A stretch of DNA of 64,000 nt. It comes from an uncultured Rhodospirillales bacterium (lineage in GTDB: Bacteria > Pseudomonadota > Alphaproteobacteria > UBA9219 > RGZA01). A program made the translations under genes and the position numbers. The stretch is taken from NCBI GenBank assembly GCA_964568585.1, contig CAZMQI010000003.1:32975-96974 (forward strand), given 5' to 3'. The notes under the pieces are model-generated. The model was not told the origin of the DNA. It was given only the letters and a program-made list of their open reading frames with translations, and searched no databases. Below are positions 31,183-64,000 of this stretch, piece by piece; position 1 is the first letter of the stretch, and each line of letters begins with the position of its first letter.

Positions 31183-31423
31183 ATATAGTAGACGCGCGTT
31201 AAAGAGAGGTGAACGCCCGGCATATCGCTATGAAATCACTGGCATTCGTTCCGTTTGCGGTATTTGCAACTTCAGGCTGAAACCTTTTTAGGAATCTATT
31301 GCAGTATTAGTTTCAATGGCCTATATGAGTACTGCAACTGAATAGAAGGTTTTTAATTGCATGGCCGCTGCTGGCGATCCAGAAGACAATAATGATGGCG
31401 GGTTTCGCAACACCCAGCCAACC

Positions 31424-31825
31424 ATGACTCTTTCCTGGACAGAGCAGGATGAGATTTTGACCAACCTTTGGTCAAAGGGCGAAAAACCAGAATCAATCGC
31501 TGTTACGTTGAACCGTTCAGTTGCCGCCGTAATGACCAGAGCGGCGCGTCTTGGACTGCAGCGTCGTTTCGCACCCGGACGCAAGCCCAAGAAAACAGGT
31601 GATGCTGAAACTGGTCTTGCCAATCTTCGTAATGCCGCACGCCTTTCTGCACAATTGCAAACCACACCCGCACAGCTATCACACCGTATTTGTTTGATGT
31701 GTTTAAGCCGTTTCCAATCGCAGGGACGCCATAATCGCATTTGTGGCAATTGCAAAGGCTCACCTGAATATCGTTCCGCAGCCGGATTGCCAGATGTCGA
31801 CGTTTCATCGGGCGGCGGCGTCTAA
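31424..31825 (+). CDS. GcrA-family cell-cycle regulator-like protein
   Basis: N-terminus MTLSWTEQDEILTNLWSKGEKPESIAVTLNRSVAAVMTRAARLGL matches the GcrA DNA-binding domain. The C-terminus CLMCLSRF...RICGNC resembles the GcrA Cys-containing tail. The ORF is open from 31361. Confidence 0.6.
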   Translation: MTLSWTEQDEILTNLWSKGEKPESIAVTLNRSVAAVMTRAARLGLQRRFAPGRKPKKTGDAETGLANLRNAARLSAQLQTTPAQLSHRICLMCLSRFQSQGRHNRICGNCKGSPEYRSAAGLPDVDVSSGGGV

Positions 31826-31883
31826 TTAAGACGCAATTTACTCCTTAAGTTTTCTTAAACGAACCATCGCTAACTTTATTCAT

Positions 31884-32540
31884 ATGAATAAACAAGATGC
31901 CGTTCAAACCGTTTTAATCCGTAATAGTTTTTACCGCGACGGGTATCGTTCGCTGCTGAAAGTCGCGCTTGTGCAGGGCGGCGTCATCATCGCGCTGATT
32001 GCCGCGATTGTGTATCTCGTTTTAGCCAGCGATGTGAAGCATGTGTTTTTTGCGACCAACGTTGATGGCCGCATCATGCCGATTGAACCAATCGCCGAGC
32101 CATACTTCCAGGATGACCAGGTCATCACATGGGTTGCGAAAACCGCACGCGAAGTTATGCAGATGGATTATCTCAATTATCGTACCTCGTTGGATAAAGC
32201 GAACAGCAAGTTCACACAAGCAGGTCGTATCGACTTCCACGCTGCGCTTAAAGACAGCCGTTTGATTGAAGCGATTGAGAAGAACAAGCTGGTCGTTCAA
32301 TTGAAAGTTGAAGGTGCGCCGCAAATCTTGAAGAAGGCCATCACGAAGGAAGGCGCGTATGTGTGGTTCCTCTCCATGCCGATCAGCATCGTGTATGACG
32401 GACAAGATCCACCGCAACCATTCCACGGAAAACTACAAGTACGCGTTGACCGTATCGACTTCCTTGAAAACCCCGATGGTATCGCATTCGGCCAATGGGT
32501 AGTGGGCGAAGAAAATATCCTCAATCGTGTACAAAAGTAA
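31884..32540 (+). CDS. T4BSS inner-membrane component, DotI/IcmL (TraM)-like
   Basis: 218 aa with a single N-terminal TM helix and a periplasmic domain. It is first in a gene order matching icmL-K-E-G-C-D-J-B. Confidence 0.5.
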   Translation: MNKQDAVQTVLIRNSFYRDGYRSLLKVALVQGGVIIALIAAIVYLVLASDVKHVFFATNVDGRIMPIEPIAEPYFQDDQVITWVAKTAREVMQMDYLNYRTSLDKANSKFTQAGRIDFHAALKDSRLIEAIEKNKLVVQLKVEGAPQILKKAITKEGAYVWFLSMPISIVYDGQDPPQPFHGKLQVRVDRIDFLENPDGIAFGQWVVGEENILNRVQK

Positions 32541-32582: not shown

Positions 32583-33263
32583 ATGGCAACAAAACGGCCA
32601 ACTACCGCCATTAAACCCGAACAGGTTTATAAGGTTGTGTTTCATCCATCCGAACCAGCGCCGGTTGGTTCATCGGCGCAGTTCCGTTTCGCCAGAGGGC
32701 TGGTGACGATTTTATCATACATCATCGCGATGCTCGTCTTCTGCGTGTTCATGGTATTCTTCATGTTCGCGGATACATATTTCTATCACTTCAGCGTGCT
32801 TGATCGTGAACGCATTCCCGAGCGGCTAGTGACGATGCATCCACTAGATAATCCGAACTTGACGCGTACGGGCATCACCAACATGGCGATGAATATTGCG
32901 ACAGAAGTATTGACCTTTGGCTTCAATAACGCCGATGAACGCTTGCTGAAATCTCGCCGCCTGTTTACCGAAGCTGCGTGGCTGCGTTTTGCCAAGGCAT
33001 ATCTTAAGGAAGGCCGTCTTGATAAAATCAAGCTCAACCAGCAAGTGCTGACCAACATCGCAAGAGATAATGCGGTGATTGTGGAAGAGGGCAAGAATTC
33101 ATCTGGCGAACTGCAATGGGTCGTACAGGTTCCAACTATTACAACTTACCAAGCCGGTAAAAAAATCGTGCCGGTCCGAAGTGTCCTGCAGATCACGCTC
33201 ATCAAGGCATCGACCCTTGAGCATCCCGAAGGTGTTGCAATTGATGGTTGGGAACAACTGTAA
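32583..33263 (+). CDS. Paralogous DotI/IcmL-like (or DotJ/IcmM-like) membrane protein
   Basis: 226 aa with the same architecture as the upstream gene (TM helix plus a periplasmic domain of similar length). Confidence 0.45.
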   Translation: MATKRPTTAIKPEQVYKVVFHPSEPAPVGSSAQFRFARGLVTILSYIIAMLVFCVFMVFFMFADTYFYHFSVLDRERIPERLVTMHPLDNPNLTRTGITNMAMNIATEVLTFGFNNADERLLKSRRLFTEAAWLRFAKAYLKEGRLDKIKLNQQVLTNIARDNAVIVEEGKNSSGELQWVVQVPTITTYQAGKKIVPVRSVLQITLIKASTLEHPEGVAIDGWEQL

Positions 33264-33473: not shown

Positions 33474-34799
33474 ATGACGATTCGTGACCTCAAATCATTG
33501 ATAGGTAGACCTTTACGGCATTTAGCCGTTTCGGGCGGCGTACTCCTTGTGACATTACTATGCACAGGGATTTCCACAGCTTATGCACAGACCATTTTGC
33601 CTGCCGCGCTGATGGCAACATCTTCCCCTGCGATATTGCCCCCTCCATCAACATCTCAGGCAACATCCCCGACATTATCAATGGAAGCAAATCTTGCGCC
33701 GCCTGCAATGGAAGCGCCTGCGCTCGCTCATCCTGCTTTAGCAATGCCGATTGCATCTGAATCAACCGCGCCACTTCCAACCTCTACGACGACAACCACC
33801 ACTACAACTACCGATGCACCTCCGCCACTTACCATTTCAACGGATACTACACCGCCACCTGCGCCACCAACTGAAGCGCTTGGAAGAACCGCAAGCGTGG
33901 ATCGTCCTGCATCCAGCGTGATGCCACTTGATCCACCGCCCTTGCCGCAAGAAAGCCGTTTGGACAATGCCATCCGTAATGAAGCTGAACGTTCATTCTA
34001 CGATGCCAAAAAACAAAAATATCAATCAACGTTTGAACGCGCTTACGAAGGACTTGTTCCGCTAGGCCCAAATGAAGTGCGCGATACGATGAGCCGTTAT
34101 GAACGCACGCAGCGCGCATCCGTTCCACCATCTACGGGACAGCCACGCGGCCAAGTCCGCATCAAAACATTATCGCTGGAACCTGGTTCTGAACCACCCA
34201 CCATCAATATTTCGTCGGGTTATGTAACGACGATTACGATTTTGGATGCAACGGGCGAGCCATGGCCCATTCTTGATTTAGGGATTGGCGGAAATTTTGA
34301 AGTGAGCAAAACAGGCGGCGGTAATCACGTTATCCGCGTGATGCCACTGACACGTTTTGGTTATGGTAATCTGTCGGTCTTGTTACAGGATTTATCAACG
34401 CCGATTATTTTCAAGCTGGCTTCCGGTGGCGCAACGGTGGATTACCGTTTTGACGCACGCGTTCCGCGTCTTGGCCCCAACGCCAAACTATCGCTGATTG
34501 ATAAGAAGAACAGATTACAAGCGGGCTCAGCCGACATCATGGGGTTCCTTGATAACGCACCGCCGCCCGAAGCAAAGCGCGTTCGCATCAATGGCGCAGA
34601 CTCTCGCACCATGGCATGGACGGTAGATCGCCGCATGTTCGTGCGTACACCGCTCACCATGTTATCGCCATCTTGGGATTCCAGTGTGTCATCCGCGGAT
34701 GGCACCACGGTATATGAATTAACTGAAACGCCCGTCCTTATTATGTCTGATAATGGTGTGCTGGTACGCGCAAGAGTGGCACCCAAGGAAGAAGAATAG
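33474..34799 (+). CDS. DotH/IcmK (TraN)-like outer-membrane-associated T4BSS core protein
   Basis: Signal peptide, then a Pro/Thr/Ala-rich linker (including a run of 10 Thr), then a C-terminal beta-rich domain of about 250 aa. It follows the icmL-like genes. Confidence 0.45.
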   Translation: MTIRDLKSLIGRPLRHLAVSGGVLLVTLLCTGISTAYAQTILPAALMATSSPAILPPPSTSQATSPTLSMEANLAPPAMEAPALAHPALAMPIASESTAPLPTSTTTTTTTTTDAPPPLTISTDTTPPPAPPTEALGRTASVDRPASSVMPLDPPPLPQESRLDNAIRNEAERSFYDAKKQKYQSTFERAYEGLVPLGPNEVRDTMSRYERTQRASVPPSTGQPRGQVRIKTLSLEPGSEPPTINISSGYVTTITILDATGEPWPILDLGIGGNFEVSKTGGGNHVIRVMPLTRFGYGNLSVLLQDLSTPIIFKLASGGATVDYRFDARVPRLGPNAKLSLIDKKNRLQAGSADIMGFLDNAPPPEAKRVRINGADSRTMAWTVDRRMFVRTPLTMLSPSWDSSVSSADGTTVYELTETPVLIMSDNGVLVRARVAPKEEE

Positions 34800-34801
34800 T
34801 C

Positions 34802-36178
34802 ATGACCAACAACAACGCAGATGATTTTGATCAGGATTTTTCGGACGCAACGGTACAACGTGCGCCTGCTGCAAAGCCAACTATGGCGAACAACATCGCC
34901 GCTGCGTGGCAAGGCAGCCCGTTGTTCAAAATGTTTGTGTTGGTGGTGATTGTTGGTGCACTCGCTGCTGCTGCCATCGCGATTTTCTCCGGCAATGAAA
35001 AGGATATTCCTGGTTCATCCGTGCGTTCCGCTCCCGGGTTGACCGAAGCACCAGGTGCCAAAGCGCCGCCAGCTTATGTGGATGCTGTGAACGACGCATC
35101 CGTCAAACGTGCGGAAGAAGCATTGCAACAAGGCAAGAGCGCCATTCCAACGCCTGTGTCGGGCGATGAAACAAAAGCGGGTCTTGGCGATCAAGGTGAT
35201 GAATCGCAATATGATCCTTTGGCAGAATTCCGTCCCAATACTCCGCAAGATGCAGCGCCATCCGAGCAGCAAGACCAAACACCTGTTGAAACCATCGACA
35301 GCGAATTGCTGAGCAAGATGCAATCGCAAATGACCAATTTGTTTGATAGCTGGCGTCCGGCTGGAATTAAAACCATACAGATTCAAGAAATGTCAGCGCG
35401 GCAAGCGACACCGGTTTCAACCACCACCCAGCAGAATGCAAAAACCCTTGTTGCATCGGGTAGCATTTATTACGGCGAAATGTTGATGGAAGCGAATTCC
35501 GATGCGCCTGGCCCGATTGTCGCACAGATTCTATCAGGTCCGTTTGCGGGTGGCCGCGCGATTGGCGCGTTTGAGGTTACACGCGAATACCTGATCATCC
35601 GTTTCACAAAGATCAGCTACAAGAAAAAAGACTATGCAGCTGATATTCTTGCGGTTGACCCGAATACAACCTTGGGCGCACTGGTAACCGAAAAAGATAA
35701 CCGATATTTTACGCGCGTTCTTTTGCCGGCAGCTGCGGCATTCCTTGAAGGGTTCGGTCAGGCATTAGGCACACCATCCAATAGTATTATCAGCAATGAT
35801 GGTCAGACAGTCGTATTGCAGCAATCCAAACAGGGTGTTGAAGACGGGCTCTATCGTGGTCTTGCGGAAGGTGCAACGACCGTTGGTGGTTTCTTCAGGG
35901 ATGAAGCAGCCGCAACCAAACCGCTTATTCGCGTTGCTGTCGGAACGCCGATGGGACTATTTTTTGTGAATGCAGTAACCGACGGGAACCAGAACGGTCG
36001 TAGTGCGAATGTGATTGAAACCCCAATTCAGACACAAGTGCAGCAACCGCCGCCGACTTTTTCCTCATCGGGCGCCTTAATTAATGACAATACCATCCCA
36101 AATACAGGATTAACCACGGTTCCCGCTTCATCTCTTGCGAACAGTGGTGTCAACATTATACAATCCGGTACCAAATAA
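34802..36178 (+). CDS. DotG/IcmE (TraO)-like T4BSS core protein with a VirB10/TrbI-like C-terminal domain
   Basis: 458 aa. N-terminal TM helix, Pro-rich periplasmic linker, and a C-terminal VirB10-type region (FTKISYKKKDY...). Short compared with Legionella DotG and lacks repeats. Confidence 0.55.
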   Translation: MTNNNADDFDQDFSDATVQRAPAAKPTMANNIAAAWQGSPLFKMFVLVVIVGALAAAAIAIFSGNEKDIPGSSVRSAPGLTEAPGAKAPPAYVDAVNDASVKRAEEALQQGKSAIPTPVSGDETKAGLGDQGDESQYDPLAEFRPNTPQDAAPSEQQDQTPVETIDSELLSKMQSQMTNLFDSWRPAGIKTIQIQEMSARQATPVSTTTQQNAKTLVASGSIYYGEMLMEANSDAPGPIVAQILSGPFAGGRAIGAFEVTREYLIIRFTKISYKKKDYAADILAVDPNTTLGALVTEKDNRYFTRVLLPAAAAFLEGFGQALGTPSNSIISNDGQTVVLQQSKQGVEDGLYRGLAEGATTVGGFFRDEAAATKPLIRVAVGTPMGLFFVNAVTDGNQNGRSANVIETPIQTQVQQPPPTFSSSGALINDNTIPNTGLTTVPASSLANSGVNIIQSGTK

Positions 36179-37587: not shown

Positions 37588-37800
37588 ACCGTTTTCGTCA
37601 TTCCTCAGAATAATAGTAAGATATGGTTAATGATTTTTAACCAATGGGAATTTCTTCCTTTGAAATCAAAGAAAGAAAGTAATTTTTTATATACTTTTAA
37701 TGAATCCTTGGAATACTCGGATGATGGGGAAAAGCCTTTTACTGTCATCCAATCATATGGGATGTAATCCATGGGGTTGGGTTGTTTTAGGATATTGCGA

Positions 37801-38790
37801 ATGAAGCATGCCAAGAAACAAAACCGCCTGTTCAGTTTCATTTCTGGAGTTGATGTGACGCGCTTACTTTTGGCTGCGCTCATTGTAATTTTATATCCGA
37901 CATCGGGGTTTGCACAAACAATAGATCCGAATAATGGAACAACGGTTGGAAGCATGTTCTGCAATGTCTTGCAGAACTCCGGTTCGTTCCCGCCACTTTT
38001 TTCAGGCATAGCTTACATCACCGGCGCATGGATTGTGGTGCGCGGTCTATTCGATATGATGAAGCGCAGTTCCGATCCGACCAATAAGCCATTTAAAGAT
38101 GGTATTCTTGGCGTGATGATGGGCGGTATGGTGGCATCACTTCCAAACCTCATCAACTGGCTGCATAAATCACTTCTACGTGACACTGTAAAAGGTGACG
38201 GCATCCGTTGCTCGGCCGCAGAATCGGTAGCCACCGATAGTGCTGTTCCGCTTGACGTGATGCTCAGCAATTTCGTTGGCAATATCACCCCTGGCATCCT
38301 TGCGCTGATTAGCGGCATGGCGGTAATCTTTGGTATTGTGATGATTTTCTATAACATGGTGAAGCTGTCGAAATTCGGTTCTGACGCTAAAACCAGCACA
38401 CTGACACCCATCATCGGCAGCTTGATTATCGGTGCGCTTTTGGTCGCGGTTGGTCAAACCATGGATGTGAGCTTAAGCACCATCTTTGGTAACAACACGT
38501 CGATGACGACGCTGACAAAATATTCAGGCGTGGCCTATGTGCCTGGCGGCAGTTTTGATATGACGCGTTTCAATAATGCGATGTCGGCAGTGTTCACATT
38601 CCTTCGAATCGTCGGCAGTTTGAGTTTTGTGCGTGGATTCTTCGTGATGAAGAATGCATTGGAAGGACAAGGGCAGGCGACCAAGGGTCAGGCCTATACC
38701 CATATCATCGGTGGCGCGCTGTTGGTGAACATGCCAGCTTTTATCCAATACATCGAACAGTCAGTCGGGTTCAAAGTTTTGGCTGGCTAA
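37801..38790 (+). CDS. Polytopic membrane protein with signal peptide, at the DotE/IcmC (TraQ) position
   Basis: About 330 aa with at least 5 hydrophobic helices. Start chosen at the Met at 37801, which gives a signal-like N-terminus. Confidence 0.4.
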   Translation: MKHAKKQNRLFSFISGVDVTRLLLAALIVILYPTSGFAQTIDPNNGTTVGSMFCNVLQNSGSFPPLFSGIAYITGAWIVVRGLFDMMKRSSDPTNKPFKDGILGVMMGGMVASLPNLINWLHKSLLRDTVKGDGIRCSAAESVATDSAVPLDVMLSNFVGNITPGILALISGMAVIFGIVMIFYNMVKLSKFGSDAKTSTLTPIIGSLIIGALLVAVGQTMDVSLSTIFGNNTSMTTLTKYSGVAYVPGGSFDMTRFNNAMSAVFTFLRIVGSLSFVRGFFVMKNALEGQGQATKGQAYTHIIGGALLVNMPAFIQYIEQSVGFKVLAG

Positions 38791-38959: not shown

Positions 38960-39364
38960 ATGAAGTTTGGTAGCGTAATGAATACAGCAGTTAAGAGCGC
39001 GATGATCGCGGGTATTCTTGCAGCAGCATGGCCTGAAATGGCACATGCACAGAATTTTCAGGCTACATCTGCCGCGTTGGTAGACGCGCTAAAAGATATG
39101 CCAGTTATTATTTCGGGCGTCTCTTATATGTTTGGTGGGTTGCTGGTTTTGGGCGGCGCAAACAAATTGAAGATGCATGCGGAAAATCCGCAGCAGACTC
39201 CGATGTCTCACGGCCTTGTTCGTATTGGCGTGGGCGGGATGATTGCAGGCTTGCCACCGTTTATGGGTTGGGTGAACAACTCGTTGTCGATTGGCGGCGG
39301 CACGATGAAGTTCAAGAAGCTTGATAGAATTTCTGACCTAATTACTTTCAGTGGTGTGTGTTAG
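38960..39364 (+). CDS. Small membrane protein, DotP/IcmD (TraR)- or VirB2-pilin-like
   Basis: 134 aa with a signal peptide and two hydrophobic segments. Shares the motif HAENPQQ(T/N)P...G...R with the next gene. Confidence 0.4.
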   Translation: MKFGSVMNTAVKSAMIAGILAAAWPEMAHAQNFQATSAALVDALKDMPVIISGVSYMFGGLLVLGGANKLKMHAENPQQTPMSHGLVRIGVGGMIAGLPPFMGWVNNSLSIGGGTMKFKKLDRISDLITFSGVC

Positions 39365-39403: not shown

Positions 39404-39826
39404 ATGAAACGTGAATTGTTTGAAAATGTACTTAAGACCGGTCTCGTTGCAGCAGTGATTGCAATTGCTTGCCCTGATTTAGCATCCGCACAAGCACTTC
39501 AAAACTCTGTAACCGAAGTGAAAGCCGGTATTGCGAATATGCCGATGCTTGTATCAGGCTTTGCATATATCGCAGGCGGTGCAGCGATGTTAAGCGGCGC
39601 CGGTATGCTCAAGAAACATGCTGATAATCCTCAACAAAACCCACTTGCACCAGGCGTGACCCGCATGGCATTGGGCGGCGTGGTAGCAGCGATGCCATCA
39701 TTCCTCAGCTACGTAAACGGTACGCTGAAAAGCAATACCGAAGGGCCATTGCAGTACAAAGGACTTCAAACCGTTGGTGAATTGAAGTTGAATTTGATGC
39801 ATCAAATTACCAGTCTCTTCTCATAA
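39404..39826 (+). CDS. Tandem paralog of the previous small membrane protein
   Basis: 140 aa. Motifs KKHADNPQQNPLAPGVTRMALGGVVAAMPSF here versus KMHAENPQQTPMSHGLVRIGVGGMIAGLPPF upstream. Confidence 0.4.
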   Translation: MKRELFENVLKTGLVAAVIAIACPDLASAQALQNSVTEVKAGIANMPMLVSGFAYIAGGAAMLSGAGMLKKHADNPQQNPLAPGVTRMALGGVVAAMPSFLSYVNGTLKSNTEGPLQYKGLQTVGELKLNLMHQITSLFS

Positions 39827-51191: not shown

Positions 51192-51197
51192 TTTGAT

Positions 51198-51467
51198 TTG
51201 AATGGTGTTGGGAGTACAAGCATGAAAAAAATAAATTATCTACTATTGGCGGCGGGATTTACATTCTTATTCGCGCTGGAAAGACCAATCATCCTTCACG
51301 CTGCACTTCCCCCAATGGAGGCGGAACAAGAAGAAGAAAAAGAGAAAAAGCTTGTCGAACAGAAAAAAGCTGGAAAGACCGATAAACAAAAAGGTCAAGG
51401 CAAGCAAAATAAATCATCAAAAGACCCTGAGAAGTGTAATTCTTCTTGGGATAATCTAAAATGTTAG
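51198..51467 (+). CDS. Hypothetical small secreted Lys/Glu-rich protein
   Basis: Signal peptide, then a charged low-complexity tail (EQEEEKEKKLVEQKKAGKTDKQKGQGKQNK). Confidence 0.35.
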   Translation: MNGVGSTSMKKINYLLLAAGFTFLFALERPIILHAALPPMEAEQEEEKEKKLVEQKKAGKTDKQKGQGKQNKSSKDPEKCNSSWDNLKC

Positions 51468-54795: not shown

Positions 54796-54831
54796 TCGTT
54801 TTTTAAATCTCATCGTTTTGTTGGGCCCTTG

Positions 54832-55887
54832 ATGAAACTTGCATATGTAAAATCTGTTATGGCTGCGCTTATGGTAAGCGCGCTTATTGCTGTCCCTGCT
54901 TTTGCTGCTCAAAAAAAGGAAGCCGCTCATAAAGAGGCTGCCAAAGAAACAGTTGTTCCCTTGGCGGCTTCACCATCTGCAAAAGAGCCTGCGACAGAAC
55001 CATCACCTGCCACCGCTGTTCCAGCAGATGCTGCTGCGATACCTGCCGCGCCAGTAAATGTTCCCGATACATCCAATATCTTGTTTATGCAGAATATGCG
55101 TAAGATTGGGGCGACCATTTATTATCTTGGCGAGAATTTAGGTCTGCATGGCTGGTTTGTGGTCAAGGATGGACAAGTACAAATCATCTACACAACGCCG
55201 GATCAAAAAGCGTTACTGGTCGGCGCGTTGCTATCTCCTGAAGGCGCGAATGTATCGCAGCAACAAGTGATGGTGCTGGCCAATAACAATCCTGAAATTC
55301 AAAAAATCTTAAGGGGTTCTGCTGCCGTTACAGGCCAGCCACCAAAACCTGCGCCAGCTGTAGCAAATGATGTGCTGCATGCCGCAACGGGTGTTGCGCC
55401 AGCCCCAGCAAAAGCACCGCAAGAGTCGCCCAGTGAGAAATTCTTTGGTGAGCTTCTCAAGGCTACCAATGTAACATTCGGCAAAGAAGGCGCGCCGCAA
55501 TTGCTGATGATTATGGATGTGAATTGCCCGCATTGTCATAACGCATGGAAGAATATGCAGCCATTGGTTGATGGCGGAAAATTGCGCGTGACGATGATTC
55601 CTATCAAAGCACTTGGCCCTCAATCGGAGTTGGAAGGCGCGAATTGGCTTTCTAAAAAAGATCCATACGAAGCATGGAAGAAGCGCATTGCAGGTGACGA
55701 AACCGTTTTCAGAAGCGGCCAACAGGATACTGAAAAAGAAAAAGGTGTCTTTGCAAATACAGTGCTAGTCAAACATTGGGGTGTAATGCAAACGCCATAC
55801 ATTCTATATCGCGGTAAAAACGACAAAATCCGGTTGATTGAAGGTGAGCCAAAAAGCATCGACGAAATCATGTCGGATATAAAGTAA
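54832..55887 (+). CDS. DsbC/DsbG-family thiol:disulfide isomerase (IncI TrbB-like)
   Basis: Signal peptide, Ala/Pro-rich linker, thioredoxin-fold motif CPHC. Confidence 0.7.
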   Translation: MKLAYVKSVMAALMVSALIAVPAFAAQKKEAAHKEAAKETVVPLAASPSAKEPATEPSPATAVPADAAAIPAAPVNVPDTSNILFMQNMRKIGATIYYLGENLGLHGWFVVKDGQVQIIYTTPDQKALLVGALLSPEGANVSQQQVMVLANNNPEIQKILRGSAAVTGQPPKPAPAVANDVLHAATGVAPAPAKAPQESPSEKFFGELLKATNVTFGKEGAPQLLMIMDVNCPHCHNAWKNMQPLVDGGKLRVTMIPIKALGPQSELEGANWLSKKDPYEAWKKRIAGDETVFRSGQQDTEKEKGVFANTVLVKHWGVMQTPYILYRGKNDKIRLIEGEPKSIDEIMSDIK

Positions 55888-55914: not shown

Positions 55915-56199
55915 ATGGCTAATATGTTAGACAAGTTTAAGGAAAAGATTTCCGGCACACCGCCAAAGAAAAGCGGTGTCACGGTCTATACATCTGGCCC
56001 GCTTGCAAGACCTGTTGAGCGTCAAGCAGCACCGGAATCAACATTACCACATGCCGCCGCCATTTATGGCGCTGCTGCCGCCATATTTGCCGTGTTGACC
56101 GTTTATTATCTGATTAAGGGACATTGGTTCACCGGTACGGTGATGATTCTTCCAACCTTGTGCCTGGGTGGATTTGCATATCACCACATGAAAAACTAA
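55915..56199 (+). CDS. Small membrane protein (94 aa)
   Basis: Two hydrophobic helices at the C-terminus. Confidence 0.3.
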   Translation: MANMLDKFKEKISGTPPKKSGVTVYTSGPLARPVERQAAPESTLPHAAAIYGAAAAIFAVLTVYYLIKGHWFTGTVMILPTLCLGGFAYHHMKN

Positions 56200-56402: not shown

Positions 56403-56981
56403 ATGGCGATACATCGCGCATCTTTTTACAAAGTCACTTGTTTAGAAAATGCGGGCCGCTTTTTACGCGTTTGCATCTTGCTTGGGTTGATAACTGTTTC
56501 CACCATTACCCTGACAGGGTGCGCGGATGATGATATTGAAAATCCGGCCATGCTTCCTGTGTATGCAACCCCTGTTGACCCCGATCCGGTTGGTCTGCGC
56601 TTAGCACAAGCAGCGGAGCGCGCGACCCAGGCACAAAACAAAATGGCGCAAATTGAATCATTCCGCACGCCGTTGCCAACGCAAGATGGCCTTGGCACAT
56701 CACTTCCCGGCACCGCGCAAATCACCAGCGTGACATGGACTGGCCCCATCGATCAGATTACCCGCACGCTTTCTGAAATGGCTGGTTTGAGCTTTAAGGT
56801 AACTGGAAAAGAACCGCCTTTGCCAATGATAGTAAGTGTCAATGCGCACCAGGAGCCCATAAGCAAAATTCTACAGGATATTGGTGCGCAGGCTGGGCGG
56901 CGGGCTGACTTGATTATCGACCCCACGAATAGAACGCTTGATCTGCATTATGCACCGACCGATGGACTCAATTATTACTAA
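56403..56981 (+). CDS. DotD (TraH)-like outer-membrane lipoprotein
   Basis: Lipobox LTGC, a disordered linker, and a C-terminal domain of about 90 aa (secretin-N0-like position). First gene of a dotD-dotC-dotB order. Confidence 0.55.
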   Translation: MAIHRASFYKVTCLENAGRFLRVCILLGLITVSTITLTGCADDDIENPAMLPVYATPVDPDPVGLRLAQAAERATQAQNKMAQIESFRTPLPTQDGLGTSLPGTAQITSVTWTGPIDQITRTLSEMAGLSFKVTGKEPPLPMIVSVNAHQEPISKILQDIGAQAGRRADLIIDPTNRTLDLHYAPTDGLNYY

Positions 56982-57015
56982 TCATCGCGCACCTTTAAAA
57001 AAGCCGCGCAGGTTC

Positions 57016-57864
57016 ATGGCCGCGTTGCTTGCCTGCGCGTTGATGATTGGAATAAGTCACGCTGCATTCGCTGACAATGAAGAAAACCGTGATGCGCCAG
57101 CGCCGCCACCGCCCAATTTCAATCAGATGCAATCGTGGCTGAAGATTAAAGATGATGATGCGGAAGAACACGAAGAACAAGCCAAGAAAAAAATCGGTGT
57201 ACAAATCCGTGTTGATGCGTTGAAAGAAGCTGCGCTGTCGTATGGCGCACGCGGCGGTCTTGCATGGCGCACATTCCAAATTCAACGTCGCCTAGCGGAG
57301 AACGAAGGCAATATCACCAAGATTTTCAATTTCGGTAATTTGCTGATTGCCGCGCCATCTGGATTGATGATTGAACCACCCGTGGTGACCGAAGCACAAA
57401 AAGCGGTCATCGTCGCCAATGGCGGACAAAATGCTGCCGTGGCTGACCGTGTCTATCGTATCAATCGCAATGCCCGCATTGTGACCGCAGCTAAAAACTG
57501 GCGTGCTTATCTGGAGCGTGATTGGGGCAGGGTGGAACCGCCCCCTAACGCTTTGGTTCCCAAGAACGAAGAAGAGCTCGCCCATTGGCGTCGCCAGCTG
57601 GCTTTGGGCTGGCAAGAAGGAATTCGTCAGGCAGATGACATATTTCAGGCCGATTTGGACCGTTTAAACACAGATTATTTAGGAATGGTAAGGTATCGTG
57701 AGTTGTTGGCTCAGGGCATCATTACACCGCCCTATGCCACGCAAGAAGATAGAGGCGTAACCGGTGGTGGCAGCGAAATGCGTATTGGCGATCGCGGCCT
57801 CGTCATTACCGGACCGTCGCAGTTTAACCCGAAGAGTGAACGATGGATCACGGCTCCGCGCTAG
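57016..57864 (+). CDS. DotC (TraI)-like lipoprotein
   Basis: Lipobox LLAC at the Met 57016 start (the ORF is open from 56938). About 280 aa. Lies between the dotD-like and dotB genes. Confidence 0.55.
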   Translation: MAALLACALMIGISHAAFADNEENRDAPAPPPPNFNQMQSWLKIKDDDAEEHEEQAKKKIGVQIRVDALKEAALSYGARGGLAWRTFQIQRRLAENEGNITKIFNFGNLLIAAPSGLMIEPPVVTEAQKAVIVANGGQNAAVADRVYRINRNARIVTAAKNWRAYLERDWGRVEPPPNALVPKNEEELAHWRRQLALGWQEGIRQADDIFQADLDRLNTDYLGMVRYRELLAQGIITPPYATQEDRGVTGGGSEMRIGDRGLVITGPSQFNPKSERWITAPR

Positions 57865-59045
57865 CATCTGGTCAAGGCCTTGTCGTCGGTTCTGCCGAAA
57901 TGGATTTTTGGCCGGATGAGCCACCGCGTATTCGCGTCGAGCTGGTTGATGATCTGATCCTGTGGTGCGTGATGCAGCGCGCCAGCGATATCACCATTCA
58001 ATCCGACCGCCCGACCTATATCGAAGTTGACGGAAAATTATTTCCTGTAACGCGTCGTTCCATCGACAGCGCCGACATCGCGGCCTTCGTCACCAAAATG
58101 TATGGGCTTGATGCCATGGCCGCATTGACGGCGGGTAAAGATCTGGATTTATCCTACGAAATCCGCGTCGATCGAAATACACGCTTCCGTTTCCGTGTGA
58201 ACATCACCGCGATTTTAAGTAAAGGACGCGATGGCGTTTCCATTACCATGCGCGTGCTTCCGAATGTCCCGCCGCGTATGAGCGATCTTGGAATTGAAAA
58301 GGAATTGATTGATGCGTGGGCACCGCGCCAGGGTCTTGTGTTCGTAACGGGACCAACGGGTTCTGGTAAGACAACGCTGTTAGCCGCTGGTACACGCATG
58401 CTCATCGAACGTCCTGAAGGCGCAGGAAAGATGCTCACTTATGAAGCGCCGATTGAATATGTGTATGACCAGATTGTCGGCCCGCACAGTGTAATCGCGC
58501 AAAGTGAAATCCCGCGCAATCTGCCAAGCTTTGCTGCGGGAGTTCGTAACTCGTTGCGCCGCAAACCGAACATCATTCTGGTGGGTGAAGCCCGTGACCG
58601 CGAAACGGTTTCTGCCGCGATTGAAGCGGGGCAGACGGGTCACTTGGTATATGCCACAACCCATACCATCGGTGTGGCGGCAACGGTTCGCCGTCTTGTG
58701 TCTGTATTTGATTCAGGCGAACGTTTGGAGCGCGCCTATGCATTGATCGAAACAACGCGTTTAATCGTCACGCAGGCACTTGTACCACGTGTGGGCGGTG
58801 GACGTATCGCGCTTCGTGAATATCTGATTTTCGATGAACATGTGCGCGAGCATCTGTTGGAAACACCACTTGAAAACTGGACATCCGAAACGCAGAACAT
58901 GCTCGAGAAGTATGGCCGCACGATGCAGAAATCGGCCAACGAGATTTATAGCCAAGGCTTGATTGATCGCCGCCATTACCTATTATTGTCGCGTGGCTTT
59001 GGCGATGAAAATGTTGATGAAAAACCTGCTGGCCACGCTCAATAG
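57843..59045 (+). CDS. DotB (TraJ)-like secretion ATPase of the PilT/VirB11 superfamily
   Basis: Walker A VFVTGPTGSGKTT and Asp/His boxes. 400 aa. Confidence 0.85.
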   Translation: MDHGSALASGQGLVVGSAEMDFWPDEPPRIRVELVDDLILWCVMQRASDITIQSDRPTYIEVDGKLFPVTRRSIDSADIAAFVTKMYGLDAMAALTAGKDLDLSYEIRVDRNTRFRFRVNITAILSKGRDGVSITMRVLPNVPPRMSDLGIEKELIDAWAPRQGLVFVTGPTGSGKTTLLAAGTRMLIERPEGAGKMLTYEAPIEYVYDQIVGPHSVIAQSEIPRNLPSFAAGVRNSLRRKPNIILVGEARDRETVSAAIEAGQTGHLVYATTHTIGVAATVRRLVSVFDSGERLERAYALIETTRLIVTQALVPRVGGGRIALREYLIFDEHVREHLLETPLENWTSETQNMLEKYGRTMQKSANEIYSQGLIDRRHYLLLSRGFGDENVDEKPAGHAQ

Positions 59046-59764: not shown

Positions 59765-61120
59765 ATGCGTAAGCCAATTGAGTACCCTCACGATAGTCGT
59801 GCGTCGATTTTTGGTGCAAGAGGGGATTTTTTAAAGGCAGGAATGAACATGAAAAGAAGTCATATGGGACTATTTTATAAGGCTATTACCATCGTTTCTT
59901 TTTTATCGATTGCGTTGATAGGCCACGACTTGCAAGCCGTCACGCTAGGGACATCATCAGCAAAGCAAATCGGTTTTAGAGTTGCAAATTCAGGCGCCAC
60001 CAATGGCGCCACACAAAATCAAGGCATCATTGATCAGCCACCTGTCGTTATTCAGGGTCGTTCAGGAAACGCCCAGCAGCAATCCCAACAACAAGCCCCG
60101 CAAAATCAGAATACTGCGCGCGCGCCAAATGGTTACGCGCAAGCTGGCGCTCCATCCATGGCGATGGAACCGGTTGTTGAAGGGTTTGGTGACAAGGTTC
60201 CGCTCACCGTTGCCATCCAGCAAATTCTTCCACAAGGTTATGGCTACACATTAGGCGACGGCGTTGATGCAGGTCAGCTTGTTAGCTGGCGCGGTGGTCG
60301 TTCGTGGTCAGCTGTGTTGCAGGACATGCTTGGTCAGGCCGGTCTTGCTTATTCGGTAAATGGACGTTCTGTTGCGATTAATGGCAATGGTGCATCCCCA
60401 ACCATCGTAACTGGTACGCCTTCGATGCGTGTTCAGCCGCAACCTGTTATCCAGCCTGTTCAATCAGCCCCGGTTGTTGTTCAACAGCCAGTGATGATGG
60501 ATCCAGTGCCTGTCATGCAACCACAACCACAAATGGTCATGCAGCAACCTCAAATGCAACCAATGATGCAGGTGCAGCCGCAGATGCAGCCAGTGATGAT
60601 GCAGCCGCAGCCGCAAATGGTTATGCAGCAACCCCAGATGCAACCAATGGTGCAGTCACAGCCAATGATGATGCAGCCGCAAGGTCAGCAACAAGTAGTG
60701 ATGATGCAGCAGCAGCCACAAATGATGATGGTCGATCCACTAGGTCAACCCATGATGATGCAGCAGATGGCGCCGGCACAACAAGTTGTGCCAGCTTCAA
60801 CGGCACCTCAGCCATTGCAAATCGAAAATCCATTAGTGTTCCAATCGCAAACATGGACCGCTGCTCCTGGTCAAACGCTTCGCACATTGCTTCAAAACTG
60901 GTGTGCACGCGTTGGTGTCGAACTGAACTGGACTGCGGAATTCGATTACCCAATTATGGCGACGATGAATATGACGGGCACGTTTGAAGAAGCGGTTCGC
61001 GTATTGCTCATAGGATTTGATGGCGCAAAACCAACGCCACGCGGACGTTTGCACTACAACCCGGCAGCCGGACAATCGATTTTGATTGTTGAAGCTGACG
61101 GCAATCATTATGGGGACTAA
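59765..61120 (+). CDS. PilL/TcpQ-like periplasmic protein with a Gln/Pro/Met-rich repeat spacer
   Basis: Signal peptide. Low-complexity (QPQMQPMMQ)n region. C-terminal region of about 100 aa resembling the TcpQ C-terminal domain, directly upstream of a secretin lipoprotein. Confidence 0.45.
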   Translation: MRKPIEYPHDSRASIFGARGDFLKAGMNMKRSHMGLFYKAITIVSFLSIALIGHDLQAVTLGTSSAKQIGFRVANSGATNGATQNQGIIDQPPVVIQGRSGNAQQQSQQQAPQNQNTARAPNGYAQAGAPSMAMEPVVEGFGDKVPLTVAIQQILPQGYGYTLGDGVDAGQLVSWRGGRSWSAVLQDMLGQAGLAYSVNGRSVAINGNGASPTIVTGTPSMRVQPQPVIQPVQSAPVVVQQPVMMDPVPVMQPQPQMVMQQPQMQPMMQVQPQMQPVMMQPQPQMVMQQPQMQPMVQSQPMMMQPQGQQQVVMMQQQPQMMMVDPLGQPMMMQQMAPAQQVVPASTAPQPLQIENPLVFQSQTWTAAPGQTLRTLLQNWCARVGVELNWTAEFDYPIMATMNMTGTFEEAVRVLLIGFDGAKPTPRGRLHYNPAAGQSILIVEADGNHYGD

Positions 61121-61123
61121 ACT

Positions 61124-62797
61124 ATGGCGTTGTTGACGTTGTTGCCATCACAGTTTCGCGAAAAAGCGGTTTCGTTTTTCGGCGTGTTCATCTTAGCTGC
61201 TGCACTTTGTGGCTGCCAATCCGAAGACTACCGCAATACCATTAGTGAACGTCAACAAGTAGCCGAACAGCGCGTTGATGAAGCACGCATTCCAGCATCT
61301 GCCAAACGGTTTAACCCATTGACAGTGACCGATAGCATTTGGACTGGTGGTAAAGCCATACGCATGCGTCATGGCATTCCATTGCCGTCACGCGTTGAAA
61401 GCAATCGCTCGGTTGCATTGATTTCGCCTTCACCAATGTCCGTTCGCGCTATTGCAAACGCTATTTCACAACAGACGGGTATTCCAGTTCGTTTTGGAAA
61501 AGATGTGGATGATGGCAGTGGTGAAGACGATGACGCGCCGAGCAGCTCATCTTCCAGCTCTTCGACCGCCAAAAAGCCAGCCCCATCCGCCAAAGTGGTG
61601 GCAAAAACCCCGCAAGTCGGTATGCGTGTTGCCTATGAAGGCCCGCTCTCCGGACTACTTGATCGTGTTGCAAGCCATTTTGGTGTAAACTGGAAATATG
61701 ATGGCAGCGCACTTTCCGTTACCCGTTATGAAACGCGCACCTTTGTTATGGATGCATTGCCAGGTACCCAAAAAGTTAAAGACGGTATGAAAGAGCAGAC
61801 CGATAATAATGCGTCTGCTTCGGGTAATACACAGGTTACCAGCGTAAGCCAGCAAGCTGGCGAACAAACATCCAGCATGGAAGTTGATTTCAAGTTCTGG
61901 GATGAAATTGGCAAAACACTTGAAACTATTTTAGGTGGCGTTGGAAGCTATTCGATGTCTCCGTCATCCGGCACAATTACGGTTATGACGACGCCTGATG
62001 TCATGCGCGGTGTTTCCGATTTCATCAATCAGGAAAATGATCGTCTTGGTCGTCAGGTTGCCATCAACGTGGAAGTGTACACAGTTGATATGAATGAAGG
62101 TGAAGACTTTAATATGAGGTTTGATACAGCGTTGCGTCGTCTCACCAACATTGGCGGTAACTTCACATCGGCTGGCGGACCATCATCCACCAGCACGGGG
62201 TTAGGACAGCTCGCTGTTTCTGTGCTCAATCCTGAAACCATTGGTAGTGTTACCAGCATCTTTAACCTGCTTTCAAACGTAGGTAAGACGGCGCGCGTTG
62301 CACAGTTTCCGTTGACCACGCTGAACAATCGTCCTGTGTCACGCCGCATTGGCCGCGATATTGCGTACCTTGCTTCGGTACAAACCAATACCAGCCAGAC
62401 ATTCCAAAACACCACGCTAACGCCAGGTATTATTAAGGATGGTTTCTCCATCCAAGTAACGCCACGCTTGCTGGGTGAAGGACGTATTCTCTTGCAATAC
62501 TCCTTGTCCTTAATTGATTTGGTCGGTGCTCCGAGAACATTTACGTCGGGTGATAACCAGATTCAGCTTCCTGAAACCGCGACACGCTTCTTTGTACAGC
62601 AATCGATGTTGCGTAGTGGATCGACCCTTGTGCTTGCCGGATTTGACCAAGATCAGGCTTCACAAAGTTCACAGGGTGTAGGCAATCCTTATAACTATCT
62701 ACTTGGTGGGGGCGTAACCAATTCACGCACACGTCAAATCCTGTTTATTGCAATGACGCCGCAGGAGATTACCCTACCGAGGACGGAGAATGAGTAA
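61124..62797 (+). CDS. Secretin-family outer-membrane lipoprotein (PilN/TcpC-like)
   Basis: Lipobox LCGC. Ser-rich linker. C-terminal secretin-like block STLVLAGFDQ...NPYNYLLGGGVTNSRTRQILFIAMTPQEI. Confidence 0.55.
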   Translation: MALLTLLPSQFREKAVSFFGVFILAAALCGCQSEDYRNTISERQQVAEQRVDEARIPASAKRFNPLTVTDSIWTGGKAIRMRHGIPLPSRVESNRSVALISPSPMSVRAIANAISQQTGIPVRFGKDVDDGSGEDDDAPSSSSSSSSTAKKPAPSAKVVAKTPQVGMRVAYEGPLSGLLDRVASHFGVNWKYDGSALSVTRYETRTFVMDALPGTQKVKDGMKEQTDNNASASGNTQVTSVSQQAGEQTSSMEVDFKFWDEIGKTLETILGGVGSYSMSPSSGTITVMTTPDVMRGVSDFINQENDRLGRQVAINVEVYTVDMNEGEDFNMRFDTALRRLTNIGGNFTSAGGPSSTSTGLGQLAVSVLNPETIGSVTSIFNLLSNVGKTARVAQFPLTTLNNRPVSRRIGRDIAYLASVQTNTSQTFQNTTLTPGIIKDGFSIQVTPRLLGEGRILLQYSLSLIDLVGAPRTFTSGDNQIQLPETATRFFVQQSMLRSGSTLVLAGFDQDQASQSSQGVGNPYNYLLGGGVTNSRTRQILFIAMTPQEITLPRTENE

Positions 62798-64000
62798 TGG
62801 TTTCTGGCGTTGTCAAAGTTGGCAGGCAAATTTATGCTGTCGGCCTGTTATGGCAGCCGTCGCCTAGTGGGCGTATTGCTCAGGCGGCACGCGAAGCAGC
62901 GGCGCAACCTGGCCAACAATCCGACTACTATTGCGTACGTGCTGCAAGTAAATCAGTTGCAATCCCTCAATATGGCCTAGCGCAAAGTACGCAAGGTCAC
63001 AAAGCAGGCATGGCTACGCTTGCGGCATCGCTTGCCAATGCACAGCCGGGTTCTTGGGCGGGTGCGTTTCGTTTACGCGAAGGCACATGGGTTGTTGTTG
63101 TCAGAGATGATTTAATTGCGCCAGATGGCGACGTTTTATTTGATAATGATGAAGCCGCACGTGACCGCTTACTGCAGGAAGTAAGCCTTGGCGGTGTACA
63201 ACGTATTTATGCCCCAGATGGCTGGGCCGTACCGGGTTCTGATCCGACGCCATTGCCGTTATTATTACAAGACAAAGCCGAATGCCGTCTGCAACCTGTG
63301 CGCTTGCCGATGCGCCTCATTATTTACGGGGCTGCAGCAGGCGCGGTAGTGTTACTGGTTATCTTTCTTGCCTTACAATGGCAGGCCGAACAAGAACGCA
63401 TCGAGCAAGAGCAGACCGCTGCACAGCTTAAAGCGCAACAGGAAGCTATTAAAAATGGCCCTGTCAGCAAGATGATGAACAAGTGGGAATGGCCACCTGC
63501 AGACCAATGCTATGAACGTAAATGGGAAAAGGCCGCGACTTCAAGAGAAGTAGTAACTGCCTGTCAGGGTATGATGGCCAAGGTTCAGGCTTCCCAGCTC
63601 GGTTGGAAGCGCAGCACCGCAGTGTGTAGCGGCGATAACAAGCTGACGATTACCTGGTTGCGTAATAAAGACATTAATGGTGTCGTCCCTCCTGAATCAA
63701 TTGTTAAAGAAGATTTAAGCATGGCAACGCAGAATAGCCGTGGTGCGACATGGGTTGCGCGTGGCGTTGAGCCATTGATGCGGGAAATAGACTTATCGGC
63801 ACTTATGATTCATGATAAGTGGCCAGTGTCAGTCATGCGTCTCCCTGATGATCCGCCGATGGTTCAGCCACCGGCAGATATGAAGGATCCACCACCGCCG
63901 CCACCGCCGCCATGGCGCAAGCGCGGGATTAAGTATTCTGGTAAGGTTCCGCCGTGGGAAATGTGGCGCTATTTTGATGGGGTAACGGGTTTGATATTGG
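62797..64000 (+). CDS. Hypothetical protein, possibly a PilO-like pilus biogenesis component; 3' partial at the window edge
   Basis: Start codon overlaps the secretin stop (ATGA-type overlap). One TM helix (LIIYGAAAGAVVLLVIFLAL) and a poly-Pro stretch (PPPPPPPP). No stop before position 64000. Confidence 0.35.
   Translation, partial: MVSGVVKVGRQIYAVGLLWQPSPSGRIAQAAREAAAQPGQQSDYYCVRAASKSVAIPQYGLAQSTQGHKAGMATLAASLANAQPGSWAGAFRLREGTWVVVVRDDLIAPDGDVLFDNDEAARDRLLQEVSLGGVQRIYAPDGWAVPGSDPTPLPLLLQDKAECRLQPVRLPMRLIIYGAAAGAVVLLVIFLALQWQAEQERIEQEQTAAQLKAQQEAIKNGPVSKMMNKWEWPPADQCYERKWEKAATSREVVTACQGMMAKVQASQLGWKRSTAVCSGDNKLTITWLRNKDINGVVPPESIVKEDLSMATQNSRGATWVARGVEPLMREIDLSALMIHDKWPVSVMRLPDDPPMVQPPADMKDPPPPPPPPWRKRGIKYSGKVPPWEMWRYFDGVTGLIL

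Follow-up and report, generated by a model that had tools for sequence, protein, structure and literature searches.

The right-hand half of a 64,000-nucleotide stretch of an uncultured Rhodospirillales genome (assembly GCA_964568585.1, contig CAZMQI010000003.1, positions 32,975 to 96,974; this whole stretch is "the window" below) carries a chromosomal secretion system of the I-type, or type IVB, class (T4BSS), an assignment well beyond chance. Counterparts of DotI, DotH, DotG, DotE, DotN, DotC, DotD, DotB, IcmT, DotM, and DotL are encoded together, with hidden Markov model (HMM) E-values of 1e-17 to 1e-121, and the components identified by HMM or homology span 31.9 to 59.6 kb, all on the + strand. 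This T4BSS of about 28 kb is joined directly to an R64-type type IVb pilus operon, the two together taking up about 40 kb when the genes past the window end are included. The region is not a recent mobile element; it is chromosomally fixed and vertically inherited. On balance we favor its being a domesticated, contact-dependent T4BSS that translocates proteins.

Gene content of the secretion locus

An initial annotation of this DNA, made without database searches, had proposed a divergent I-type system, and Pfam and NCBIfam profiles together with phmmer do place the components in MPF_I families. In a six-frame listing of open reading frames (ORFs), + strand genes run unbroken from 31361 to the window end, with all ORFs of the locus intact and the spacers short. 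The gene order is that of traM-N-O-P-Q-R-T-U and traH-I-J-K, as taken from an annotated IncI plasmid; the Legionella order icmL-K-E-G-C-D-J-B is the same as the IncI traM-to-traU order and as the order in the window. The genes from dotI through dotL are as follows (TM, transmembrane).

31884..32540, + strand: DotI/IcmL (TraM), copy 1; Pfam T4BSS_DotI_IcmL 1.1e-37, NCBIfam IcmL_DotI 135 bits (cut-off 175)
32583..33263, + strand: DotI/IcmL paralogue, copy 2, in the DotJ position; Pfam T4BSS_DotI_IcmL 4.1e-27
33474..34799, + strand: DotH/IcmK (TraN), outer-membrane core protein; Pfam T4BSS_DotH_IcmK 7e-72 over residues 196-432, phmmer against IncI TraN 4e-28
34802..36178, + strand: DotG/IcmE (TraO), short, with a VirB10/TrbI-like C-terminus; Pfam TrbI 4e-9, NCBIfam IcmE_DotG 117 bits versus TraO_IncI1 65 bits
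36229..37587, + strand: bitopic protein at the DotF/IcmG (TraP) site; single TM segment (residues 136-154), same-position homologues clade-wide
37771..38790, + strand: DotE/IcmC (TraQ) family, polytopic, with an extra N-terminal domain; NCBIfam TraQ_IncI1 4.7e-17, Pfam DUF6750, five predicted TM segments
38960..39364, + strand: small membrane protein, DotP/IcmD (TraR)-like, paralogue of the TraQ domain; phmmer, mutual matches with 39404-39826
39404..39826, + strand: second DotP/IcmD-like small membrane protein; phmmer
39845..40576, + strand: DotN/IcmJ (TraT), Cys-rich coupling-complex subunit; NCBIfam IcmJ_DotN_IVB 3e-26, 92 bits (cut-off 100)
40712..43816, + strand: DotO/IcmB (TraU), VirB4-family ATPase, 1034 residues; phmmer against IncI TraU 5e-99
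43865..45085, + strand: DotM/IcmP (TrbA); Pfam DotM_C 3e-45, NCBIfam DotM_IcmP 8.8e-49
45628..48108, + strand: DotL/IcmO (TrbC), type IV coupling ATPase; NCBIfam TrbC 5.7e-116

The two DotI copies, DotH, DotG with its VirB10-like C-terminus, DotN, DotM, and DotL had all been named in the initial annotation, and each returns an HMM match; DotL carries in addition a 160-residue C-terminal tail that is unaligned. DotO returns no Pfam, NCBIfam, or PDB sequence match. By its phmmer match to IncI TraU, which agrees with the DotO call made earlier, and by tblastn matches to 3783 plasmid records, some of them annotated IcmB and the best at 43% identity, the 1034-residue ORF is nevertheless clearly the TraU/IcmB/DotO ATPase. 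The two small proteins at 38960-39364 and 39404-39826 had been called pilin-like, which they do not appear to be: in phmmer they match each other and, across many loci, the TraQ-like protein in its C-terminal half, and this double paralogy puts both of them in the DotE/DotP family.

The protein in the DotF position is a different case. It has no Pfam or NCBIfam match, so that of the DotF-like bitopic protein proposed earlier the position and topology stand and a family match does not, and "DotF-like" is used here in a purely positional sense. Its ratio of nonsynonymous to synonymous substitution (dN/dS) of 0.17 is the highest among the genes for which one could be computed, and it is thus fast evolving. 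Its N-terminal 130 residues are cytoplasmic, highly acidic, and rich in His, Asp, and Glu (HSHEAHEHDGEHDAEHHDGDEGLEHD), and its periplasmic part is Q/A-rich and coiled-coil-like.

Beyond dotL and the six ORFs that follow it, the machinery resumes with the module that gives the system its traH-I-J-K end.

54286..54795, + strand: lytic transglycosylase (TrbN/IagB-like); NCBIfam TrbN 6e-24, weak Pfam SLT match
54829..55887, + strand: periplasmic thiol:disulfide isomerase (DsbG/TrbB-like); NCBIfam DsbG 4.5e-30, Pfam Thioredoxin_2
55915..56199, + strand: small membrane protein, clade-conserved; same-position homologues in loci L001, L051, and L053
56403..56981, + strand: DotD (TraH) lipoprotein; Pfam DotD 1.5e-26
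56938..57864, + strand: DotC (TraI) lipoprotein; Pfam T4SS_TraI 3e-76
57843..59045, + strand: DotB (TraJ) hexameric ATPase; HMM match 2e-121, NCBIfam dot_icm_DotB 405.5 bits versus plasmid_TraJ 245.7 bits
59207..59614, + strand: IcmT/TraK; NCBIfam IcmT_TraK 3.3e-22, above the cut-off of 40

Here too the profiles agree with what had been proposed from the sequence, namely a lytic transglycosylase, a Dsb isomerase, and DotD, DotC, DotB, and IcmT in the traH-I-J-K order. Among the NCBIfam equivalog matches of the whole locus, IcmT alone reaches the curated cut-off and all others score below it; hence the lineage is divergent, as had been suggested.

One strong intrinsic terminator lies at 53165-53202, directly after a 561-residue ORF described below, with a 15-bp stem containing 9 GC pairs followed by a T-run. 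Its presence splits the locus into at least two transcription units. Apart from this terminator, consensus promoter and terminator scans gave counts at or below shuffle expectation.

Chromosomal residence and inheritance

The left 31 kb of the window holds ordinary housekeeping genes on both strands.

Left flank: guaB, rsmB, alanine dehydrogenase, rpoN, lptA, kdsD, panC, aquaporin, amidase, petABC, fhs, and acnA
16.3-17.5 kb of the window: transfer RNAs tRNA-Leu and tRNA-Ala

The secretion locus begins right after acnA, and the claim that it is chromosomal and set among alphaproteobacterial core genes could be checked in several ways. Composition does not distinguish 1-31 kb from 31-64 kb: tetranucleotide correlation is 0.90 between the T4BSS and housekeeping halves versus 0.91 within halves, and GC content is 0.493 in the former versus 0.488 in the latter. 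A plasmid-chromosome assembly chimera is ruled out by this uniformity and by the presence of the same acnA-T4BSS junction in four independent assemblies, and a known plasmid is ruled out by a megablast of 24.6 kb of the locus against plasmids, which gave no match. The GcrA-like gene at the left end of the locus, DotI, DotH, DotG, DotN, DotO, DotM, DotL, DotC, DotB, IcmT, and PilN have dN/dS values of 0.02-0.09 at a synonymous divergence of about 1.

The relatives tell the same story. With DotO as the query and one genome taken per species, relatives at 58-99% identity were found in 38 loci, all of them in uncultured alphaproteobacterial metagenome-assembled genomes (MAGs); several of the 38 are labelled Micavibrio or Bdellovibrionales (NCBI files Micavibrio under Bdellovibrionales, GTDB under Micavibrionales). 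In the three closest relatives (L002-L004) acnA adjoins the locus, and in L054, where cytochrome b (PetB) is 81% identical, the order petABC-fhs-acnA, GcrA-like gene, dotI-dotI-dotH preserves the same junction. The same set of contigs supplies the nearest relatives of PetB, PilR, and a 295-residue protein of the locus, and the rankings by identity run in parallel; no cultured organism is among the top 120 matches to cytochrome b. In many relatives the genes are split, dotO-dotM-x-dotL (x being the gene that lies between dotM and dotL) forming an isolated four-gene cluster among housekeeping genes. On a complete 1.64-Mb chromosome (L027), whose petAB region is free of T4BSS genes, this cluster stands alone between flagellar genes and pheST; in L018, a MAG labelled "Micavibrio sp.," it lies between tsaE-addAB and a glycosyltransferase gene with pta-ackA. 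In a neighbor-joining tree of DotO, a simple distance tree built without Legionella DotO, the MAG sequences form one clade that excludes IncI TraU and the sequence from a Bosea plasmid, and loci of the contiguous layout are scattered among those of the split one.

As for mobility genes, neither the window nor 805 kb of clade loci contains a NikB-, NikA-, or Rci-like ORF, NikB being the single MOBP query used, and no integrase was found in the window or in the clade loci examined. Thus, neither an integrase nor atypical composition nor variable presence marks the locus as a mobile element, although an empty acnA site was not looked for. Taken together, composition, selection, the conserved junction, co-divergence, dispersal among housekeeping genes, and the lack of mobility genes indicate an old, vertically inherited chromosomal system and not an integrative conjugative element (ICE).

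Several observations on the related genomes may be recorded here. In L054, a gene with a DnaA C-terminal domain (L054:15982-17439, on a 630-kb contig) lies about 5 kb past petC and about 13 kb from the T4BSS, so that the system of that genome may be close to the origin of replication; at the corresponding site in the window there is no DnaA-like gene. Cytochrome b and c1 are fused into one protein of 670-711 residues in L055:10001-12136, P0144, P0149, and P0191; the window has separate petB and petC. In L027, dotL is followed by a 219-residue ORF (L027:17282-17941) with a weak match to DSPc, the eukaryote-type dual-specificity phosphatase domain (23 bits, below the cut-off), which makes it a possible effector candidate. 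Finally, a 5.4-kb contig (L048; GCA_024449935.1, contig JAANSS016098496.1) carries a gene of the 295-residue family, the lytic transglycosylase gene, and dotD-dotC-dotB-icmT; its source assembly has millions of contigs and may be a eukaryote genome project with a symbiont or contaminant of this kind.

The type IVb pilus operon

The last 4.2 kb of the window had been counted as part of the T4BSS, and in this the pilus was overlooked.

59765..61120, + strand: PilL-like type IVb pilus protein; Pfam TcpQ 8e-12
61124..62797, + strand: PilN, type IVb pilus secretin; NCBIfam TIGR02520 4.9e-78, 263 bits (cut-off 288), Pfam Secretin and Secretin_N_2
62797..64000, + strand: PilO, cut by the window end; Pfam PAP_PilO 1.5e-16

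With PilN also matching IncI PilN in phmmer (2.8e-49), the segment 59765-64000 is, as judged from these similarities, the start of an R64-type type IVb pilus operon and not T4BSS proper. The PilL-like protein has at residues ~215-345 a low-complexity linker rich in Q, P, M, and V (QPQMQPM-type repeats) ahead of the TcpQ domain. Contigs with identical proteins (L041 and L042) extend the operon by a gene in the PilP position, assigned by that position only, a 687-residue PilQ ATPase, and the PilR platform protein. Beyond pilR the relatives encode a pilin of the PilS/bundlin type and, after two small ORFs, a PilV-like protein; next comes a Tad/Flp pilus locus of the ordinary kind. The pilus remains linked to dotD-dotC-dotB-icmT in relatives in which the neighboring 295-residue protein has fallen to 49% identity. 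Downstream of pilR in L043 and L044 there is no shufflon with Rci, no PilU prepilin peptidase, no PilT transglycosylase, and no PilM, and no Rci match was obtained; the neighboring Tad locus of the relatives is the sole place where an A24 peptidase is encoded.

The protein in the PilV position (L043:13164-14540; L044:12560-14038) combines a prepilin N_methyl segment with Peptidase_S74, an unusual build for a pilus tip adhesin. Peptidase_S74 is the intramolecular chaperone of phage tail spikes. Moreover, three Logan contigs (L001, L041, and L042) are identical to the window over 55-64 kb and all end about 300 bp past pilR, so that three independent assemblies break at one point, 41 codons into the pilin gene. 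The shared break suggests strain-level variation of the pilin or repeated pilin cassettes.

Lineage-specific genes of the locus

Between and around the named components lie genes with few or no family matches.

31361..31825, + strand: protein of 154 residues with a GcrA-N-like helix-turn-helix and a C-terminal CxxC...CxxC zinc ribbon; Pfam GcrA 21.2 bits (cut-off 26.9)
45098..45598, + strand: bitopic 166-residue protein between dotM and dotL; same position in 28 loci
48515..53146, + strand: five lineage-specific proteins (181, 519, 113, 89, and 561 residues); hydrophobic, signal-peptide-like N-termini
53395..54282, + strand: cytoplasmic all-alpha protein of an unnamed family, 295 residues; conserved upstream of the lytic transglycosylase gene and dotD-dotC-dotB-icmT

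The first of these had been read as a GcrA-family gene marking the host context, which does not hold: the gene travels with the locus, and its match to Pfam GcrA is confined to the N-terminal half (positions 2-85 of a 155-position profile) and falls below the cut-off. There is no NCBIfam match and no full-length GcrA domain with the C-terminal sigma-70-binding part; instead, the protein ends in the CxxC...CxxC motif, conserved across relatives. The gene lies immediately 5' of dotI in every relative that shows that region (L002-L004, L007, L009, L011, L016, L031, and L054), and its dN/dS is 0.028. We regard it as a candidate regulator of the locus.

The 166-residue protein has no Pfam or NCBIfam match. 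In an alignment of its homologues there are an N-terminal domain and a single TM helix, and the motif G-x-P-x-x-A-D at the C-terminal end is invariant. The protein represents a new accessory family of this T4BSS lineage. For the 295-residue protein, which has no Pfam or PDB match, the family comprises 264 cluster representatives, and a member at only 28% identity again sits directly upstream of the lytic transglycosylase gene and dotD-dotC-dotB-icmT. An AlphaFold2 model is all-alpha and confident (predicted local distance difference test score 89.7), and a fold search with it returned no informative neighbor. Identity of this family with IncI TraE, TraF, or TraG is ruled out by phmmer.

Of the six ORFs between dotL and the lytic transglycosylase gene, the other five form a block that is fast evolving: the 519-residue protein is only 47-49% identical in genomes in which DotO is 97-99% identical. 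A Kyte-Doolittle window scan called an N-terminal TM segment in the 181-, 89-, and 561-residue proteins only, the 519- and 113-residue proteins being judged by eye. None of the five has a Pfam, NCBIfam, or PDB match, and diverged homologues of the block occupy the same position in L053, L051, L007, and L011. It also falls in the only compositional irregularity of the window, with GC of 0.445-0.458 over 48001-52000 versus ~0.49-0.51 elsewhere. The 519- and 561-residue proteins were considered as IcmX/TraW or DotA/TraY; phmmer and hhalign were negative, a result that is uninformative for IcmX because an IcmX-TraW control also failed. To judge by conservation of sequence and position, the 166-residue, 295-residue, and five-block proteins are conserved accessory parts of this T4BSS lineage.

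A further observation concerns the site itself. In L007, L011, L018, L031, and L038, which are among many distant relatives that share this feature, a conserved family-4 glycosyltransferase gene (protein N-terminus MRVLHIM...) lies immediately 3' of dotL, often with a Wzy_C/O-antigen-ligase-like gene (as in L051), and in the genus of the window the block of secreted-looking proteins takes this post-dotL place.

Proposed function and its rivals

The initial annotation had left the choice between an effector translocator and a conjugative element open, and the evidence now favors the former and counts against the latter. The lack of a relaxase in the DNA examined, together with genes that behave as resident chromosomal ones, makes it most likely that the substrates are proteins (effectors or toxins) and not DNA. 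In the scheme that we infer, a target cell, either bacterial prey or a protist host, would be contacted and held by the type IVb pilus (PilL, PilN, and PilO, with PilP, PilQ, PilR, PilS, and a PilV-like protein in relatives); the DotC-DotD-DotH-DotG core, perhaps with the DotF-like protein, would cross the envelope, its assembly aided by the lytic transglycosylase and the Dsb isomerase; a DotL-DotM-DotN coupling complex, with the 166-residue membrane protein, would recruit cytoplasmic substrates; and DotO and DotB would power the transfer. The ancestor of such a machine was probably a conjugative module resembling that of IncI, which would have been domesticated at an early stage by an uncultured lineage of Alphaproteobacteria in which some members are labelled Micavibrio or Micavibrionales.

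Several points weigh against this interpretation and should be set out together. DotA/TraY and IcmX/TraW are needed in both the Legionella and the IncI systems, and phmmer searches with DotA and IcmX of Legionella (L. adelaidensis) and TraY and TraW of IncI as queries gave no match in the window or the fetched loci; hhalign was likewise negative, the failed IcmX-TraW control leaving that test without power for IcmX. DotA and IcmX may be encoded at another site of the genome, or this machine may be built differently. Legionella IcmV and IcmW likewise have no phmmer match in the window or the loci. For adaptors of the IcmS/LvgA/IcmQ/IcmR type the locus has no small ORF or spacer large enough, a statement made on size, with no direct sequence search. 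With these, the initial annotation's failure to recognize a relaxase, NikA, DotA, IcmX, or IcmS/W in the window stands. No effector, translocation signal, or IcmS/IcmW/LvgA-type adaptor was identified, and no effector predictor was applied. The relaxase result covers one MOBP query and ~0.8 Mb of DNA, short of a whole genome. A type IVb thin pilus beside a T4BSS is a signature of IncI conjugation and is absent from Legionella-type effector systems. The order-level taxonomy and the lifestyle of the organism rest on MAG labels, and cultured Micavibrio aeruginosavorus ARL-13 was reported to have no type IV secretion system (PMC3189940).

One rival explanation is that the locus is the mating-pair-formation module of an ICE, or an ancient immobile one that still conjugates, in which DotL delivers relaxase-bound DNA and the pilus stabilizes mating in liquid as in IncI1 R64. 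The IncI traM-to-traU and traH-K orders, the R64-type pil operon, and the presence of a coupling protein are all what one would expect of it; most plasmid relatives are typed conjugative, and a relaxase could be encoded outside the DNA examined. Nevertheless, we consider it quite unlikely, given that the window and 805 kb of related loci show no relaxase, NikA, or integrase, that the composition is that of the flank, that the chromosomal junction is kept across deep divergence, that in relatives the genes are scattered among housekeeping genes and diverge in parallel with them, and that the proteins are nearer to Legionella Dot/Icm than to IncI. A further possibility is that the locus is a relic, in decay or turned to another use such as adhesion or biofilm formation, and has ceased to translocate anything. 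This would explain the missing DotA, IcmX, and adaptors, and would suit the failure to detect IcmV and IcmW as well as equivalog scores that fall below the cut-offs everywhere except in IcmT. It is very improbable, however, for a locus with intact ORFs and short spacers, dN/dS of 0.02-0.09 in all three ATPases and the core components, and retention across a deep clade; moreover, the IcmX test on which part of the argument leans had no power.

Protein translocation into a target cell, the interpretation preferred here, has a narrower form in which the targets are bacteria and not eukaryotes: an epibiotic predator or competitor would capture Gram-negative prey with the pilus and inject lytic or toxic effectors through the T4BSS. 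The labels Micavibrio and Bdellovibrionales on several T4BSS-bearing relatives invite the idea, as do the small genomes of these relatives (1.6-2.0 Mb, flagellated), the fast-evolving block of apparently secreted proteins within the locus, and the implication of type IV pili in predation (PMC3189940). The same paper, however, reports the sole cultured Micavibrio genome to lack a type IV secretion system; no toxin-immunity pairs or cell-wall-degrading effectors were identified here, and the taxonomy comes from labels only. To our knowledge, no type IVB system is known to target bacteria. We therefore rate this special case as doubtful. The same tentative footing is all that can be given to its evolutionary extension, in which an order-level, Micavibrio-like clade of flagellated, uncultured Alphaproteobacteria with small genomes domesticated an IncI-like machine independently of the Legionellales and uses T4BSS and pilus to seize bacteria and inject effectors into them. 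If this is true, no earlier type IVB system is known to serve bacterial predation alone, and in evolution the present one would stand midway between conjugation of the IncI kind and the delivery of effectors by Dot/Icm.

Novelty and significance

In reviews, effector-translocating T4BSS figure as a landmark of the Legionellales and a few allied gammaproteobacterial lineages (PMC11338181), and our literature search found no study devoted to such systems in Micavibrionales or in Alphaproteobacteria related to them. As a machine the T4BSS is familiar, and on alphaproteobacterial plasmids it is common. The initial annotation's view of such systems as a hallmark of Legionellales and IncI plasmids only therefore needs amending, the nearest plasmid DotO and DotL being found in alphaproteobacterial replicons. 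Apparently not described before is the joint occurrence of chromosomal inheritance throughout a clade of Alphaproteobacteria, a retained IncI-type pilus, a GcrA-like gene, and conserved unnamed accessory families. Together with the 38 related loci from MAGs, the locus suggests that a second lineage, of a different class, has the T4BSS as a fixed chromosomal trait under strong purifying selection. As the IncI-type thin pilus is retained here and absent in Legionella, this lineage may show an early stage of the domestication of conjugation into protein delivery. The conserved unnamed families (the all-alpha 295-residue protein, the 166-residue partner of DotM and DotL, and the GcrA-like zinc-ribbon protein) are testable in T4BSS biology. 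If the hosts are Micavibrio-like predators or parasites of protists, of which wastewater and freshwater contain many, their mechanism of attack would have a prime candidate in this system.

Comparison with known systems

The nearest published parallel is the relaxase-less pT4SSi called by MacSyFinder in seven marine Micavibrionales MAGs (Needham et al. 2022, PMC9418006). It is probably the same kind of system in the same broad lineage; that study gives it one sentence and a supplementary table, without gene content, a pilus link, synteny, or an analysis of inheritance.

The plasmids and megaplasmids of Alphaproteobacteria (Bosea pBSY19_1, Rhizobium, Methylorubrum extorquens AM1, Roseomonas, Acetobacter, and also Methylosinus) belong to the same class and supply the best plasmid matches, at 43% identity for DotO and 40% for DotL. 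The megaplasmids of Bosea sp. RAC05 (pBSY19_1, 708 kb, L040), Rhizobium leguminosarum, and Methylorubrum extorquens AM1, with DotO and DotL at 40-43%, are non-mobilizable. The Bosea locus was considered as a syntenic relative and ruled out as not collinear: unlike the window, pBSY19_1 has response regulator, A24 peptidase, and restriction-type genes and no collinear dotI-dotN block, and its DotO falls outside the MAG clade on the tree.

IncI1 plasmids of the R64 type offer one-to-one counterparts of TraM, N, O, Q, R, T, and U, of TrbA and TrbC, and of TraH, I, J, and K; they share with the locus a TrbB-like Dsb isomerase and a type IVb pilus of the PilL, N, O, P, Q, R, S, V type beside the transfer genes. 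In contrast to them, the DNA examined here shows neither a NikA/NikB relaxase nor an oriT, and no genes for a shufflon recombinase, for exclusion, for plasmid maintenance, or of the leading region, and no TraY or TraW was found; where IncI1 has nikB-nikA after trbC, the present locus has apparently secreted proteins after dotL. The locus is moreover chromosomal and vertically inherited, and its similarity to IncI1 is about half that to Dot/Icm.

Dot/Icm of Legionella differs in its hosts (Legionellales and allied Gammaproteobacteria, versus Alphaproteobacteria here) and in several parts. DotG is short in the present system and lacks the long repeat region; dotM-x-dotL directly follows dotO; the type IVb pilus operon, the GcrA-like gene, and the 166- and 295-residue families are none of them known from Legionella; and IcmS, IcmW, LvgA, IcmQ/R, IcmF/DotU, DotK, DotA, IcmX, and IcmV were not found in this locus. 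For the proteins with references on both sides (DotB, DotC, DotD, DotL, and DotM), scores are about twofold higher against Legionella than against IncI: 374 versus 189 bits for DotB, 152 versus 89 for DotC (IncI TraI), 77 (L. adelaidensis) versus 15 for DotD (IncI TraH), 441 versus 206 for DotL (IncI TrbC), and 92 (6sz9_B) versus 40 for DotM (IncI TrbA). DotL aligns with L. pneumophila DotL (6sz9_A) over residues 13-666 at 38.9% identity (3e-131), and DotB with Legionella DotB (6geb) at 47.5% (2e-107). Even in the plasmid collection the best DotB record is from Legionella adelaidensis (48.7%), followed by Piscirickettsia. That record calls for care: NZ_LR134433.1 (L047, "Legionella adelaidensis plasmid 24," 365 kb) encodes ribosomal proteins, ftsEXY, rpoH, petABC, pheT, and Dot/Icm region I, and is thus a chromosome fragment labelled as a plasmid, so that "plasmid" matches for Dot/Icm genes are inflated. 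In the end, the Dot/Icm systems of Legionella and Coxiella are the closest by sequence, and the likeness extends to organization: they too are chromosomal, they are without a relaxase (none was found here in the DNA examined), have the icmL-K-E-G-C-D-J-B order with dotD, dotC, and dotB together, and have their genes spread over several loci, as seen here in some relatives.

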